This document shows positions 35,797 to 62,167 of a DNA stretch of 64,000 nucleotides, one piece after another. Source of the DNA: Candidatus Aenigmatarchaeota archaeon (lineage in GTDB: Archaea; Aenigmatarchaeota; Aenigmatarchaeia; Aenigmatarchaeales; Aenigmatarchaeaceae); the NCBI GenBank assembly GCA_043814985.1, contig JBDRJK010000011.1, positions 1-64,000 of the forward strand, in the 5' to 3' direction. How positions within the stretch are numbered: the first letter of the stretch is position 1; each line of letters starts with the position of its first letter. The position numbers and the translations under genes are program-made. Under the pieces are notes generated by a model. That model ran no database searches, was not told the DNA's origin, and worked only from the letters and a program-made list of their open reading frames with translations.

Positions 35797-35861
35797 CGCT
35801 TGCCCTACAAAGAGTATGGGTTATTTTAAATCTTCTGACTTGCAAATAAATCTGTGTTTAA

Positions 35862-36266
35862 ATGATAGGACAAATACCAAAAGATGTTTTGGAATCATTA
35901 TTAGAGACTATTCCTGTAGAGTTTTCTATTCTTGATGAGAATGACAAAGTATTGGCTTGGAACAAGCATGACACAAGAATTTTCAAAAGACCTGAAGGTG
36001 TTATTGGAAGGGACGTCAGGAACTGCCATCCAAAAAAGAGCCTTGAAAAAGTAGAAAAAATAATACAAGAAATGAAAGATGGCAAAAGGGATGTGGTAGA
36101 ATTCTACATAGACTTACCTATCGGTGAAAGCAAGGATAAGCATAAGATTTTAATCAGATATTTTGCTCTGCGTGACAAGAAAAATAAATATCTGGGTTGT
36201 CTTGAGGTTACTCAAGACATTACACATATCCAAAAGTTAAAGGGCGAAAAGAGACTACTTGATTGA
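35862..36266 (+). CDS. stand-alone PAS domain protein (PAS_10/DUF438-associated type)
   Basis: RIFKRP..VIGRDVRNCHP, YLGCLEVTQDIT. Confidence 0.9.
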   Translation: MIGQIPKDVLESLLETIPVEFSILDENDKVLAWNKHDTRIFKRPEGVIGRDVRNCHPKKSLEKVEKIIQEMKDGKRDVVEFYIDLPIGESKDKHKILIRYFALRDKKNKYLGCLEVTQDITHIQKLKGEKRLLD

Positions 36267-36296
36267 AGCTGGTAAAAAGTGGAATGATAGTAGCGT

Positions 36297-36313
36297 TCCT
36301 GCCCTCCGCATTA
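36297..36313 (+). repeat. 17-bp direct repeat copy 2
   Basis: exact match at 35780-35796. Confidence 0.8.
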
Positions 36314-36464
36314 ATCAATAAATAATTCCAGCAACAATTCTCTCTATGGAACTTTCTTCTAATGCTTCGCTTTGCGCTAAGTGTAAAGGACGAATATAAT
36401 TTAATTTTCATTAAGTTATTTTCACATAAGGTGGTTAATAATCAATAAATATTCCACCAACAAT
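36312..36464 (+). promoter_or_regulatory. duplicated promoter-like element (36312-36338 and 36439-36464)
   Basis: TAATCAATAAATAATTCCAGCAACAAT vs TAATCAATAAAT-ATTCCACCAACAAT, each 7-8 nt before an ATG. Confidence 0.7.
36346..36399 (+). pseudogene. displaced 5' fragment of nreA (MELSSNASLCAKCKGRI*)
   Basis: LCxxCKG matches the Nre N-terminus (MNLCVRCKG); shared TGTAAAGG. Confidence 0.7.
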
Positions 36465-36472
36465 ATTTAGTT

Positions 36473-37708
36473 ATGGATAATGGAATAGTTGATTTCTGGT
36501 CTTTACCCCATGACAAAATTTATTTAAATTTAGAAAATGAATTAAAGGAAAAAATTTTCAATTCTTCAAAAGAATATGCTGGGAGCTGGAGCAAATTAGG
36601 AAAATGTCTTGGCCTTTCCCTAAACAAATATGGAAGCTGTAAAATTATAGAAAGTGCTAGATGTAAAAAATTTAGTTTATTTTTACTTGATAAAATTATA
36701 GATTATTTGAATTCTAATGGCGAGAAAATAGATAAGAAGAATATAGAAAAGAAAATAACAGTACTTTCCTCTAAAAGAGGAGGTTCAAACAAGTTAGCCA
36801 ACAGTATTTTCAATCCAAAGATACCCTTTAATTTTAATACTGTTGACGGTGCTACTGTCCTTTCTTCCATTTTTTATGATGGTGGAATTAACAGCAACCT
36901 ATTGCCTCATTATAGTAATCCAGACAATGTAGAACTGAGGAAAAGTGTGTTCGATTCTTTCACAAATGTTTTTGGCACATTCAAATCTAAAAAAAGCAAC
37001 CCCTTAGAAAATCCTCAGCTATACTTCCCAAAAATAGTCGGAGTAATTCTTGTTTATGGTTTAGGATTATCTTATGGAAGAAAAGTTGTAAATAATCCAT
37101 CCATACCAGAATTCTTATTTGAATCCTCTGAAGAAATAAAATCATCATTTCTTCGACAAGCCTTTGATGATGAAGGCTCTGTCCACAAGACTAAAAGAAA
37201 TATAAGTTTCAAATTGGCCTCTTCTTCTGAAAGACCTGCTAAACTTCTTACCGGTGTAAAATGTCTGTTAGAGAGTCTAAACATAGAGAGCAATGGTCCT
37301 CATTATGTTGATACATACAATACTAAGAACGGCATTACAGCTTCCAGATGGAGAATATCTGTAACACATCAAGATAATTTAAAAAAGTTTTATGAAAAAA
37401 TTGGTTTTCATTCATCCTATAAGAAAAATAGACTTAAGAATATTATTCATACATTAAAATACCCTCATTATTCTGTTAAAAATAGAAACAAAATTATTAT
37501 AAAATCTTGCAGTGAACTTCAAAAAAGATACGGTTTTATAACTAGCAGAGAACTTGCAATACAAATCGACAGAAGTCGGGTCTTAGCTAAAAAGGTTATT
37601 CGAAAATTAGTAGATAGGAAAGTTCTCTTAGTTAAAGAATGCCGCCATGGAAATATGGGAGCTAAATATGTTTTAAGTGATAATTATGAATCTTTGTGTA
37701 AGATGTAA
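36473..37708 (+). mobile_element. free-standing double-motif LAGLIDADG endonuclease with C-terminal winged helix
   Basis: motifs SSIFYDGG and FLRQAFDDEGSV, FYEKIGF; no intein splice residues; AT-rich. Confidence 0.85.
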
Positions 37709-38900
37709 AGGTACTAGGATTTTATGTGGAAAAAGTAGTTGTCCATTGTTGATAAAGTTCTATAGTTATATGAGAACTAAACCACTTATTGATTCGACTA
37801 CTCTCAATGGTTCATCGCCACCAGCTTGCTTTGTAGGTTCTTATGGATATCCCAAGGTTTTCGTGGGGCCCTTGGTGCCGCCGAAACACGGTGACACCAG
37901 CTTCATGGACACGCCTGAGATGTGGAGGGGCAAGACAATGTGGGACATAGTCGACTTCAGGTTCCAGCTGGTGAGGGGCAAGTTCGTGACTGATGTCAAG
38001 AACTTTGAGGGAAAGATAATCGAGCGGACTAGGGAGATTGCCCTGGCTCAGGAGTCTCCCAGTGCTGAGGTTGAGTTCAAGAACAAACCAAGAGGATTAT
38101 CCTTTAACAGTGAGACACAGCCCTTTGGTCCGTCGGCAAATGTCATTGGCCTTAATATTGAAAACAAGGGCTACAACAAGAAAATAGAAAAAGCGTTCTA
38201 CGACACTGACCTGAAGGCTGTGCCTGCTGTTGTTGATCTTTACAAGAACGGCGTGCTGATTTCAAAAATACAGAAGGCTTTTTCTGTGGGTGCGTTTGGA
38301 ATCGGAAAGAGCAGGAGATTCGTTCCAACGCGCTGGAGCATAACAGCTGTTGATGACATGATTTCAAAACATCTCATAGAGCAGGTAAAAACATTCCCGC
38401 TGATAAACGAGTATCTGGTTTACGAGCACGCTGCTTTGGACAACCGCTGGTTTGTTTTAATGATACCACACGAATGGAGTTACGAGCAGATGGAAGCGTG
38501 GTATCCCAAGACATTGTGGAACCCGTCTGATGCAATTGACATATCAACAGCATGGGAAGGTTTCAACGGACTAAAGGGCTATCCGGATACAGCTGGCTGC
38601 TACTTTTCCACGAGGCTGGCTGCCACCGAGTACCTTGCCAATGAAAGGAGGCAGGCTGCTGTAATAGTATTCAGGGAAATCCATCCAGGTTACACTGTTC
38701 CTGTGGGTGTCTGGCACACCCGAGAGAGCATAAGGGATGCTGTCAAGAAAACTCCTGTTAGATTCAGCTCAATGAGTGGCGCCTTGGACTATCTGTCAAA
38801 GAAGATGACCATACCTGTTAAGAGGTGGGTTGAAAAATCCAGTCTTCTTAGGAACCTGATGCGACAGAGAAAGCTGTCAGACTTCATCAAGCCTTTCTAA
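37686..38900 (+). CDS. nreA: Nre DNA repair protein
   Basis: CxxCKG...LCG...CP, GSSPP.FVG..GYPKV, VPTRWSITAVD, C-terminal PIP box QRKLSDF. Confidence 0.93.
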   Translation: MNLCVRCKGTRILCGKSSCPLLIKFYSYMRTKPLIDSTTLNGSSPPACFVGSYGYPKVFVGPLVPPKHGDTSFMDTPEMWRGKTMWDIVDFRFQLVRGKFVTDVKNFEGKIIERTREIALAQESPSAEVEFKNKPRGLSFNSETQPFGPSANVIGLNIENKGYNKKIEKAFYDTDLKAVPAVVDLYKNGVLISKIQKAFSVGAFGIGKSRRFVPTRWSITAVDDMISKHLIEQVKTFPLINEYLVYEHAALDNRWFVLMIPHEWSYEQMEAWYPKTLWNPSDAIDISTAWEGFNGLKGYPDTAGCYFSTRLAATEYLANERRQAAVIVFREIHPGYTVPVGVWHTRESIRDAVKKTPVRFSSMSGALDYLSKKMTIPVKRWVEKSSLLRNLMRQRKLSDFIKPF

Positions 38901-38926
38901 GATAATTTAAAGTAAGGGCTGTGCTA

Positions 38927-39571
38927 CTAGATGCCCAATAACATTGCAAGGGATTCAGAATCATGTCTCACGAAAGTTGCTCTGGGCCATTTTTTCTTTT
39001 GCTCTTTCTTGATTCTGTTTAGAGTACTGTTGTCAAACGACCTATAATCATCTGTTGCTATATTACAACCGAGTTCCACTGAAGCTACTGCCACTGAGAA
39101 ATCTCCATTCTCTTTCAGAATTTCTGAAATAACAGGATATTTTTTTCGATAATATTCGGTTGGCATGAAGGCATTGCATACATTTTCTTTATTTTTTCTT
39201 AACCATTGTTTTATGTTTTCAGTCCCAGCCTTTTTTTCAAAGTTTCTGAGTTCTGCATAAACGTTATTTGTTATTACAGGGCAAATACCAGCATCAATGA
39301 GAAGTCCTTCTTCAATAGCATCAACTATTTTCATTCCCCTTTTATGATAAATAATGCTCTTTTTCATCAGAAATCCTCTTTTTTTCCCGTATGCGTGTTG
39401 TTGGCATTTTAAAAATTCATTTATATTCCTGCTTTCTTTTGGAATTACTGACGATATTAAAATATTCGTGTCAAAGACACTAATGTTTTCCCTTGGAATA
39501 TTTACAAATTTCTCGAAATTAATTTCATCCATGTATATGGATTTTGGATTTAATTTTTCCAGTGTCTCCAT
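38927..39571 (-). CDS. PIN-domain protein
   Basis: VFDTNIL, VYAEL, GDFS, ATDD acidic motifs. Confidence 0.7.
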   Translation of the reverse strand: METLEKLNPKSIYMDEINFEKFVNIPRENISVFDTNILISSVIPKESRNINEFLKCQQHAYGKKRGFLMKKSIIYHKRGMKIVDAIEEGLLIDAGICPVITNNVYAELRNFEKKAGTENIKQWLRKNKENVCNAFMPTEYYRKKYPVISEILKENGDFSVAVASVELGCNIATDDYRSFDNSTLNRIKKEQKKKWPRATFVRHDSESLAMLLGI

Positions 39572-39695
39572 AAGCAAAAAATGTGTATAAAGCTTTAAAA
39601 GTCTTTAATTGGACTTCTTGAAAGCTGTCAGACTCCATCAAGCCCTTCTGAATAAACTTAAAGTACGGGCTGTGCTATTAATAATAGGTGAAAAA

Positions 39696-59613: not shown

Positions 59614-60975
59614 ATGTTAAACAATTATTCTCCAAAAATAAGGAATGTTCTGAAAAAGGGTAAGATAAAGGTTGGAGACAGGATTTCTGTTACAAAAGGT
59701 AAGAAGACTTATGAGGGCCTGTTGATGCCTAGAGCCGAGATAGGAGATTTGAATTCTATTGTAATTAAATTGGATAATGGTTACAACATAGGCATAAGGT
59801 TTGAGAAAGGAACAAAAGTTAATAAGAGCAAGAAGAGAGAGCCCAGGAAAATCAAGGATGAGATGAAGTTCGAGATGGGTAAGGAGAAGTTCAAGAAACT
59901 GAAATTCGATCCTAAGAAGCCTAAAGTAGCTCTTATAATGACTGGTGGAACTATTGCTTCTAGAGTTGATTACAAGACAGGCGGTGTCAGAGCCTTGGAA
60001 AAGCCAGAGGAGCTTGTGGCCAATGTTCCTGAACTGAAGGATATAATCTACATAAAGGATGTTTCCACTCCCTTTAGGAAGATGTCTGAGGACTTGGGTC
60101 CAAAGGACTGGCAGAAGTTGGCAAAGGTAGTAGCAAGAGAATTGAATAAAAACAGGGGAGTGATAATTGCTCATGGAACAGACACTATGCATTATACTGC
60201 TGCTGCCTTGTCTTTCATGCTGAAGAACGTCTCCAAGCCAGTTGTTTTAGTTGGTTCACAGAGGTCTTCTGACAGAGGAAGTTCTGATTCTTCAATGAAC
60301 CTTATCTGCGCTGCCCATGTTGCCATATCAGACATCGGGGAAGTTGGAATATGCATGCACGGCTCAACAGACGACCATTACTGCTATTTCACAAGAGGAG
60401 TAAGTGCACGAAAACTTCATAGTACCAGAAGAGATGCTTTTAAGTCAGTTAACGAGCCGCCCCTGGCAAAAGTCTTTCCAAGCGGCAAGATTTCAATTAT
60501 TAACAAGAATCATAAGAAAAGGGGTGATAAGAAAGTAATAGCTGATGTCAAGTTCGAGCCCAAGGTTGCTTTACTGAAAGTTTATCCAGGAAGCGATCCA
60601 GAGATTATGGAATTTTTGCTCAAGAAAGGCTACAAGGGATTTGTCATTGAGGGAACTGGAATGGGACATGTTCCTACATCAGCTGAAAAGTCCTGGATAC
60701 CTACCATTAAGAAATTGACAAAGAAGGGCATACCAGTTGTCATCACAACGCAGACAATATACGGCAGGGTCAATCCTGATGTTTACACGAACCTGAGAAT
60801 CCTGTTCCACGAGGCAGGGGCGATTCCTGCGGAAGATATGCTTAGTGAAGTTGCATACATAAAACTTGGTTGGTTGCTAGCACATTATAAGAATATAAAC
60901 GATGTAAGGAAAATGATGTTAACCAACATGGTGGGAGAAATAAGAGACAGGTCTACTATTGATTCCTTCTTTTAG
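59614..60975 (+). CDS. gatD: Glu-tRNA(Gln) amidotransferase subunit D
   Basis: KLDNGYNIG, TGGTIASRVDY, HGTDT, SQRSSDRGSSD. Confidence 0.97.
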   Translation: MLNNYSPKIRNVLKKGKIKVGDRISVTKGKKTYEGLLMPRAEIGDLNSIVIKLDNGYNIGIRFEKGTKVNKSKKREPRKIKDEMKFEMGKEKFKKLKFDPKKPKVALIMTGGTIASRVDYKTGGVRALEKPEELVANVPELKDIIYIKDVSTPFRKMSEDLGPKDWQKLAKVVARELNKNRGVIIAHGTDTMHYTAAALSFMLKNVSKPVVLVGSQRSSDRGSSDSSMNLICAAHVAISDIGEVGICMHGSTDDHYCYFTRGVSARKLHSTRRDAFKSVNEPPLAKVFPSGKISIINKNHKKRGDKKVIADVKFEPKVALLKVYPGSDPEIMEFLLKKGYKGFVIEGTGMGHVPTSAEKSWIPTIKKLTKKGIPVVITTQTIYGRVNPDVYTNLRILFHEAGAIPAEDMLSEVAYIKLGWLLAHYKNINDVRKMMLTNMVGEIRDRSTIDSFF

Positions 60976-62167
60976 CAGAGAAGATGGAATCCCGGTTTTT
61001 AATGAAAATTTTTACTGAATTCATATCCTTATTAATATTTTCCCTCCCTTCATTATTGACTTTCTTGTATTGTAGAATTTTATTTAAGAGTGCCAATTTT
61101 TTATACGGGTTTAATTCAAAGATGTCATTTTTGTATAGCTTCAGAAAACCATCTAGATTCGTTATTATAATTCTAGGAGGAGATGTTGATGTGGCCTTTG
61201 AAGGGGACGACTTTATATCTAAAAGATTTAGGCATTGGTTTGCCACAGCTAATTCATTATTGTTAACTGAAGCGAATTGAACTGCTCTATCATAACTTCC
61301 TACGTAAGCCTCTCCGGCTAAATAACCTTTGAGATAGTATACTGCTAACTTTCTGTTGCCAATTACTTTCTCTTTAACATGCTCCAATAGTTTTAATATG
61401 ACTCTTCTAAAGATGGTGTTATTGTAATAGATATCTGTAGAACCCCATGGAACATTTTTCCTCATCTTGCCCTTTGTATTTTTAGTATAGTGTGGCGAAC
61501 TAGATTGCTCATTATTGGGACTTAATTTTGTAGTTTTTAGCCAAAACTCTCTAGATGCCTTTTCATCAGATTCTGTATACTTTCTCTTAAGTTTTCCATT
61601 GAAGATTATTCTCCATTTCAGTTTTTCAGGGCTTATTTTAAAGAATTTGAAAAAATCTAAAATCCTTTGTATCATAACAGGTTCGCTGTTAACAAATTCT
61701 AAGCTCTTTGGATTAGTCTTTGTCGCTTCAGCCACTAACAGACCGCAAGAAGACACAATTAACTCATTTAAGGGTATTTCTTTAGGGATAAACATGTAAT
61801 GATTTTTATAGCCTTTGTTGTAGTGTGAAGTACTGTACCAAAGATATGAATAATTTTCTGGTACAACTTTTTTGATTTCTATCCTTTTTACCAGCCTCCA
61901 TTTATCTGAGAATCTGAATGATTTATTGATTTTTCTTCCTTCCGTTCTTTTGACAATTTTCTTATTTTCAAGATTTGATAGGACTTTTCTTACTGTCCTC
62001 TTTTTATAGTTTGAGGACTTGTATATTTCTTTTGTTGTTTTGGAACCATCTTGCAACAAGTCCGTGACCCTCAAATCCAAAGGCATTTTGTCTATAATTT
62101 TTTCTCCACTATTCGAGACTTTAATTTTACTGTCATTTTTTACCAATTCCTTTGTTAGAATTTTCAT
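60956..62167 (-). mobile_element. free-standing double-motif LAGLIDADG endonuclease-like protein with N-terminal winged helix
   Basis: CGLLVAEAT...FVNSEP and YLKGYLAGEAYV motifs; HTH KTTKEI...TVRKVLSNLE; AT-rich. Confidence 0.75.

Follow-up and report, generated by a model that had tools for sequence, protein, structure and literature searches.

A mobile homing-endonuclease cassette probably invaded the 5' part of nreA and replaced the head of the gene in the archaeon studied here, from which we analyzed a 64,000-nucleotide stretch (the window; Candidatus Aenigmatarchaeota archaeon, GenBank assembly GCA_043814985.1, contig JBDRJK010000011.1, positions 1 to 64,000). The mobile unit is an nreA-type promoter, a free-standing LAGLIDADG gene and diverged nreA codons 1 to ~59. 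Homing endonucleases are usually said to persist concealed within self-splicing introns or inteins. The exceptions on record, WHO elements in yeast nuclei and mORFs in fungal mitochondria, replace gene tails; new here is the replacement of a 5' end together with its promoter, on an archaeal chromosome.

Each part of the arrangement described in an earlier, sequence-only reading of this DNA (promoter, mini-open reading frame (mini-ORF), second promoter, LAGLIDADG gene and intact, overlapping nreA) was found in the sequence (Table 1). The live nreA extends from its ATG at 37686 to its stop at 38900, matches Pfam Nre_N (E 2.9e-94) and Nre_C (E 8e-39), and overlaps the endonuclease ORF by 23 bp. 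A relic of the native gene start, the endonuclease and nreA occupy three separate frames with stops between them. An identical allele was present in DNA contigs of public runs from two studies, one run being a possible source of the window; single contigs spanned the relic-endonuclease joint (36042-37330 and 36338-36511) and the endonuclease-nreA joint (37115-37963). In PMC7776575, NreA is described as a repair protein specific to archaea that binds PCNA and can be dispensed with in Haloferax. Taken with that description, the sequence of the C-terminus found here, QRKLSDFI, reads as PIP-like.

The window lies on contig C11 of a genome (G000) of 807,958 bases in 21 contigs that is ~91% complete. 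Among 41 related genomes searched, 27 carried nreA, and 15 full-length alleles were aligned by codon. Within the fetched loci of the 27 nreA-bearing genomes, an endonuclease lay beside nreA only in G000 and in G017, which belongs to another genus of the same family and whose nreA locus is L032. Endonuclease-free genomes used for comparison included G002, the closest relative of G000, and G020, from the same genus as G017. Contig scans supplied endonuclease relatives from genomes (2) and metagenomes (47).

The live nreA is chimeric, its two parts having discordant relationships. As the sequence-only reading had noticed, the live head is AT-rich like the endonuclease: GC content was 0.24-0.37 in 150-nt intervals from 36350 to 37849 and 0.50-0.57 thereafter. 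GC content at third codon positions (GC3), which that reading had proposed to follow along the gene, was 0.234 in the endonuclease, 0.237 in nreA codons 1-59 and 0.571 in codons 60-404 (Fisher p 2e-6). Nucleotide identity between the nreA genes of G000 and G002 was 52-68% over the first ~65 alignment columns and 80-92% thereafter, and the comparison of G000 with G017 gave the reverse pattern. Informative sites in the G000/G017/G002 triplet divided 42:20 to the left of the breakpoint and 63:273 to its right. In three of four triplets, the maximum chi-square test placed the breakpoint after alignment column 68, a result that 0 of 1000 permutations matched; when G003 served as native partner, in the fourth triplet, the optimum was weaker and lay elsewhere, at column 247. 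The G017 gene also breaks after column 68, both against G020 and against G019. On the window, column 68 places the break between 37862 and 37875. For amino acids (aa) 1-59 of G000 the nearest heads were those of locus L038 (78% aa identity) and G017 (74%), and G002 was not among the five nearest; the nearest allele to the body was that of G002 (93% over aa 60-210, 84% over aa 211-404). The earlier reading had proposed that a recoded N-terminus repairs the host; the live head is foreign, and "recoded" is too mild a term for a head that is diverged, with 74-78% aa identity to other element-borne heads, and not synonymous.

The mini-ORF upstream of the endonuclease is a relic of the native nreA head. 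Relic codons 1-15 read MELSSNASLCAKCKG and are followed by two unrelated codons and TAA, with homology to native alleles ending after GGA at ~36390. The relatives' N-terminus had been predicted to match the relic, and all 13 full-length endonuclease-free alleles have a short Ser-rich leader and a relic-like head of the type M..SS..(L/I)CxxCKG; 0 of 13 begin MNLCVRC. The relic resembles the heads of G003, MMISSNSNLCARCKG (MMISSNSNLCARCKGRL), and G001, ..SLCAKCKGR (..SGSLCAKCKGRL). A stretch shared by both starts, also pointed out earlier, proved to be the octamer TGTAAAGG, present at 36382-36389 and 37704-37711, which is merely the conserved C-K-G codons.

Upstream relics were found in five of the seven loci with an endonuclease at the nreA start. 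Beside the 17 codons in the window, they measure 59 codons in L032, 57 or more in L036 (a Candidatus Aenigmatarchaeota genome record), 27 in L039 and 15 in L040; L038 and L041 have none. The relics of the window and L040 are not BLAST-significant alone (E 0.29 and 0.018) and are identified by position and context. Relic ends lie 1-2, 4, 10, ~27 and 40 codons beyond CKG, and because they vary among loci, the end at CKG in the window would reflect later erosion or a ragged left joint. The G017 relic is of its own genus type, is together with its promoter 76% identical to endonuclease-free G020 over 203 nt, and ends ...GSSPPSVFI, followed by a stop. Collectively, the foreign head, the native relic upstream and the breakpoint at 37862-37875 bear out the earlier claim that the element replaced the promoter and 5' end of nreA.

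The same organization recurs in G017, where a native-type promoter and the relic are followed by a 257-aa ORF and spacer, the same type of promoter again, an endonuclease 68% identical to that of the window, and an overlapping live nreA that starts MNQCALCKG. In G020 and three other relatives, the promoter and nreA lie directly between the flanking genes seen at G017. DNA homology (blastn) between the G000 and G017 elements starts at 36444, in the second promoter, and runs through the endonuclease into nreA; left of 36444 the two share native promoters only. The endonuclease also overlaps or abuts the nreA start in L036, L038, L039, L040 and L041. In L038, the relic region is deleted, and the element promoter directly adjoins the 3' end of an upstream cupin gene. 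From the element promoter to nreA codon ~215, L032 and L038 share 85-98% identity, versus only ~60% over the rest of nreA and 88-92% for flanking genes, a homing-like pattern that suggests a variable co-conversion tract of the kind expected from homing. Clade members on the 3' side of nreA (L042-L045) lack a relic. By tblastn of neighbor-gene ends, no relics were found beside relatives at ribosomal, topA, prefoldin, metK and other genes or at the four 3'-side nreA loci, and all of these look like plain free-standing insertions.

Further features of these loci were recorded. The 257-aa ORF between relic and endonuclease in G017 (L032:3357-4130) has no Pfam match and may be cargo or a piece of the donor neighborhood. 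L038 carries ~1.2 kb of extra DNA between nreA and a radical-SAM gene (L038:6434-7668). The nreA allele of L041 (L041:5058-6224) is without the CxxCKG...CP zinc-ribbon head, its NreA homology beginning at ~residue 36, just before GTSPPSIF.

Promoter structure agrees with the earlier suggestion that the endonuclease uses a copy of the nreA promoter: its box is of the nreA type and is absent elsewhere in the window. Copy 1 consists of AATAAATAAT (36317-36326) and TTCCAGCAACAAT (36326-36338), and copy 2 of AATAAATATT (36444-36453) and TTCCACCAACAAT (36452-36464). The patterns AATAAATAWT and TTCCASCAACAAT each occur at two places within the 64-kb window, these being the two promoter copies only. 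Two matches were reached in 33 of 100 shuffles for AATAAATAWT and 7 of 100 for TTCCASCAACAAT, each count alone thus being within chance; the duplication carries weight because both motifs stand side by side at the same two spots. For the same reason, a generic promoter consensus is unlikely to be the cause of the two copies, the motif pair adjoining at these two sites only in 64 kb. A AATAAATAATTC box stands at equal distance before the ATG in the endonuclease-free nreA of most family-f1 relatives compared, and CCACCAACAATATTTAGTT directly followed by ATG is common to the endonuclease promoters of G000, G017 and L038.

Start signals differ between the native and the live gene. Native nreA and the endonuclease have a TATA-like box ~20-30 nt before the ATG, a leaderless-type spacing, and no Shine-Dalgarno site was found in the upstream regions compared, either at native nreA starts or before the endonuclease. 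Ahead of the live nreA ATG, G000, G017, L038 and L040 carry GTGAT or GGTGA(T), and L036 carries GAGGA. GTGAT may function in a Shine-Dalgarno-like manner. Because this candidate site lies within the last codons of the endonuclease, nreA, formerly a leaderless single gene, probably now follows the endonuclease as second cistron in the transcript of the element.

The endonuclease matches Pfam LAGLIDADG_3 over residues 223-311 with 34.9 bits (cut-off 22.5). Its LAGLIDADG motifs are ..IFYDGGI.. (D136 G137) and ..AFDDEG.. (D232 D233 E234), and an alignment of 29 relatives shows no variation at D136-G137 or F231-D232-D233-E234. A profile search of the PDB returned intein endonuclease domains for residues 124-305 (E 4.9e-7). 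The AlphaFold2 model (mean pLDDT 91.5, pTM 0.80) has its core flanked by a helical domain at the N-terminus and a winged-helix-like domain at the C-terminus, and this core shows the two-lobed alpha-beta-beta-alpha-beta-beta-alpha fold. Its best Foldseek matches were the TliVMA intein endonuclease (E 1.9e-8), PI-PfuI, PI-PkoII, PI-SceI and I-DmoI, with WhiA at ranks 8, 14 and 18. The ratio of nonsynonymous to synonymous substitutions (dN/dS) of 0.12-0.17 indicates purifying selection. Given these values, the invariant acidic motif residues and the confidently predicted LAGLIDADG fold, the enzyme is likely active. In a tree of 29 rows, all 10 nreA-adjacent endonucleases fall in one clade (support 97/95), within which the five nearest 5'-side members group at 100/100. 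Rows outside this clade include a ribosomal-operon group (100/100) and topA rows with one L15e row. The endonuclease clade is linked to nreA as its target.

The sequence-only reading had placed the insertion in the CxxCKG codons. This position does not hold, as the replaced segment runs to codon ~59, with the breakpoint at 37862-37875, and the G017 relic extends as far as ...GSSPPSVFI. Entry near codons 55-60 is instead suggested by the end of that relic (..SSPPSVFI), by both breakpoints lying a few codons further on, and by the conserved NYPKVFVGP. We propose that the endonuclease would cut an empty nreA near codons 55-60 (GSSPPxVF/GxxNYPKVF). The right end would be repaired from a cassette-bearing allele, with a crossover in the conserved YPKVFVGP or further downstream, and the outcome would be a chimeric, intact nreA that is presumably no longer cut, since its head differs from the target at ~10 of 30 bases (G000 versus G002 at the proposed site). 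Changes of a V codon to C and an N codon to G at this site are common to G000, G017 and L038. The promoter and head of the recipient would be displaced upstream as a dead relic, which could act as left homology arm in later homing and would erode by deletion. Translation of nreA would start from the Shine-Dalgarno-like site inside the last endonuclease codons. Cleavage, its exact site, immunity and transcription are all inferred from sequence.

Other histories of the locus were weighed against invasion by a mobile cassette. Archaeal LAGLIDADG genes are classically intron-borne, and an endonuclease segment that was an intron (bulge-helix-bulge or group I/II) would splice MELSSNASLCAKCKG to TRILCG..., an in-frame joint made formally possible by both copies ending in TGTAAAGG. 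We regard this as very improbable. An Rfam E-value scan of 35800-39200 found no intron family, returning two chance-level unrelated matches only, and a group I or group II intron was rejected because the scan matched no ribozyme RNA structure around the ORF in that interval. Pairing of the junction regions, in 60-nt slices centered 1-3 nt off the TGTAAAGG ends but covering them, was no better than in shuffles (-13.1 kcal/mol; shuffles averaged -14.9, and 142 of 200 were as stable), and a loose scan for bulge-helix-bulge motifs yielded hundreds of chance candidates. Moreover, relics elsewhere end at different codons, each closed by a stop, and the live nreA is equipped with an ATG and a Shine-Dalgarno-like site of its own, its zinc-ribbon head being complete. 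L038, without any relic, keeps the same complete MNQCALCKG start, which indicates that the downstream ORF needs no upstream exon. An intein was likewise rejected, since relic, endonuclease and nreA lie in different frames with stops, and Pfam detects no Hint/intein domain in the endonuclease. The earlier description of a free-standing endonuclease without splicing apparatus is supported by the frames and by the Pfam and Rfam searches.

It is also conceivable, although in our judgment unlikely, that the endonuclease-like protein is now domesticated, perhaps as a regulator of nreA resembling WhiA, and is immobile, the chimerism dating from one old transfer. The low dN/dS, the appearance among the fold matches of WhiA, a LAGLIDADG-plus-helix-turn-helix protein, and the overlap with nreA, which is tight and operon-like at all 5'-side loci, fit such a role. 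The distribution is, however, sporadic (2 of the 27 nreA-bearing genomes, in different genera), relics vary in length and are each of the host's own type, and the catalytic acidic residues, which WhiA has lost, are invariant. The high identity of the L032 and L038 elements, set against the diverged 3' third of their nreA genes, further argues for recent movement. Somewhat less probable again is an exchange of the nreA 5' end by ordinary recombination or horizontal transfer, in which the endonuclease hitch-hiked and has its real target elsewhere. The nreA neighborhood is indeed rearranged among relatives, and endonuclease relatives adjoin many other genes; yet the nreA-adjacent endonucleases form one clade apart from those at other genes, the same breakpoint occurs in two genera, and the G017 relic ends a few codons before it.

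Some observations nonetheless weigh against replacement of the gene head by a homing cassette as set out here. Whatever caused the exchange, breakpoints would tend to lie where conservation is highest: NYPKVFVGP is the most conserved 24-nt segment of the nreA 5' third and the sixth gene-wide. The L039 head keeps a native-looking SVFVGSFNYP at the proposed site, and thus either immunity by head substitutions is not general or the L039 lineage recognizes another site. G000 and G017 have no conserved DNA separating relic from element promoter, and left joints differ among loci; the role of the relic as a homology arm is accordingly an idea borrowed from the WHO model, and holds by analogy at most. 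Purifying selection and the WhiA-like fold matches would also fit a domesticated DNA-binding protein. Finally, no empty-allele joint was seen in the contigs of four same-sample runs, although contigs drop rare variants.

In catalytic core, the nreA endonuclease is closest in sequence and fold to the TliVMA intein, PI-PfuI, PI-PkoII and I-DmoI. Archaeal intein and rRNA-intron endonucleases avoid harm by protein or RNA splicing, whereas the nreA element has neither. Free-standing endonucleases of T4-like phages (seg/mob) practice "intronless homing", in which an endonuclease gene located between or next to conserved genes encodes an enzyme that cuts one of these in an endonuclease-free genome, and the gene spreads with co-conversion of its flanks. 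Distant relatives of the nreA endonuclease, located between S19 and L22 or directly before topA, prefoldin and other genes, resemble this plain intronless form. The phage enzymes differ in being GIY-YIG or HNH types, and the phage systems have no duplicated gene end or relic.

The gene-tail elements are closer parallels. In the passages describing WHO elements at FBA1 of Torulaspora and Lachancea yeasts, the 3' end of the gene is replaced by a resistant foreign copy, and the displaced native FBA1 fragment lies beyond the endonuclease gene as a proposed homology arm (Coughlan et al. 2020, PMC7282813). As far as those passages go, the nreA element shares with WHO an intein-like LAGLIDADG-type gene without splicing, beside a full-length chimeric host gene whose parts have discordant phylogenies, and a displaced native fragment on the far side of the endonuclease gene. 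It differs in that WHO affects the 3' end of a eukaryotic nuclear gene and involves meiosis, and this element the 5' end of a gene on an archaeal chromosome; in addition, neither a Hint domain nor a zinc finger was detected by Pfam in the nreA endonuclease. Because a 5' end is replaced, expression signals have to travel with the element: a promoter, a start codon and a site for translation initiation. Fungal mitochondrial mORFs that carry a C-terminus are described, in the portions of Beaudet et al. 2013 (PMC3630166) covered here, for atp6, atp9, cox2 and nad3 of Glomus sp., with further cases in Allomyces macrogynus atp6, Rhizopus atp9 and Mortierella cox2. All of these are C-terminal, and "N-terminal" occurs 0 times in the text of that paper. 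As described there, a LAGLIDADG or GIY-YIG ORF is inserted together with a divergent foreign duplicate of the gene end, and the native end is left as an unexpressed remnant matching close relatives, as at nreA. By contrast, mORFs reside in organelle genomes, often in frame with the host gene.

Literature searches on nreA, on archaeal and DPANN homing endonucleases and on freestanding elements listed no account of such a gene-head replacement, which does not prove that none has been published. Head replacement is the harder mirror case, in which the parasite supplies the start signals and takes control of host-gene expression, and its repeated occurrence on archaeal chromosomes adds both gene heads and a third domain of life to the range of gene-end replacement. 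Mosaic 5' ends are explained in this way, as are small dead ORFs, which gene callers will mis-annotate. The loci also offer cleavage studies compact, naturally matched sets in which endonuclease, target and immune allele come together. Genomes of ~0.8 Mb are heavily loaded with such elements, one genome giving as many as 20 profile matches. We lean slightly toward the broader view that DPANN-type archaea may harbor undescribed "gene-head replacement cassettes" that enter protein-coding genes without intron or intein, would bring a promoter, start signals and a cleavage-immune copy of the first 50-60 codons, turn a leaderless single gene into a second cistron, and reuse the native head as an arm. 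If this is true, such elements could rank among the main causes of mosaicism in the conserved genes of tiny genomes, an idea prompted by the numerous free-standing relatives found next to ribosomal, topA and prefoldin genes.

Table 1. Features of the nreA locus, in window coordinates
Feature	Position	Strand	Remarks
PAS-domain gene	35862-36266		upstream neighbor of nreA locus
Native nreA promoter, copy 1	36311-36345	+	TATA-like AATAAATAAT ~20-30 nt before relic ATG
Relic of native nreA start	36346-36399	+	mini-ORF MELSSNASLCAKCKGRI and stop, 17 codons
Left-joint spacer	36400-36438	+	~40 nt, without match in G017 locus
Element-borne nreA-type promoter, copy 2	36439-36472	+	near-identical to copy 1
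Free-standing double-motif LAGLIDADG gene	36473-37708	+	411 aa
Shine-Dalgarno-like GTGAT	37677-37681	+	inside endonuclease ORF, 4 nt before live nreA ATG
Element-borne replacement head of nreA, codons 1-59	37686-37862	+	
Mosaic breakpoint interval	37863-37875	+	within ..YPKVF/VGPLV
Native nreA body, codons 60-404 and stop	37863-38900	+	

Directly downstream of nreA, a 216-aa ORF without Pfam match (38927-39577, minus strand) is also present at the G001 locus and not at the G002 and G003 loci. A 403-aa ORF (60956-62167, minus strand) lies between gatD and the next gene, and blastp found no significant similarity between it and the nreA endonuclease (E 0.075). The native nreA body has a GC3 of 0.57 versus 39.6% GC for the window, and same-genus endonuclease-free alleles are likewise GC-rich at third positions.

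Relatives of the endonuclease are widespread. A second family member, 30% identical, occurs on contig C14 of the window genome (L002:1492-4026) and ends one base before the ATG of topoisomerase I; metagenome relatives in L082 and L084 also precede topA. Matches to the endonuclease-family profile were found in 25 of the 41 related genomes (0.3-2 Mb), led by G014 with 20, G017 with 17 and G004 with 16, many lying inside very long ORFs and likely inteins. Free-standing copies include one between S19 and L22 (G014) and one before prefoldin (G004). Within the element itself, 40 nt at 36513-36552 match, with 2 differences and a 2-nt insertion, a deeper contig in all four runs (depth to ~180), presumably from a related element in a more abundant organism. 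In L037 (2800-2960), a 29%-identical relative overlaps, by ATGA, the start of an archaeal S-adenosylmethionine (SAM)-synthetase gene, and L072 is the same. The SAM-synthetase frame of L037 has an in-frame insert of ~33 nt with two stops between ..ELVERK and GIGHPDS.., which could be a broken gene, a mini-intron or a homing-site scar.

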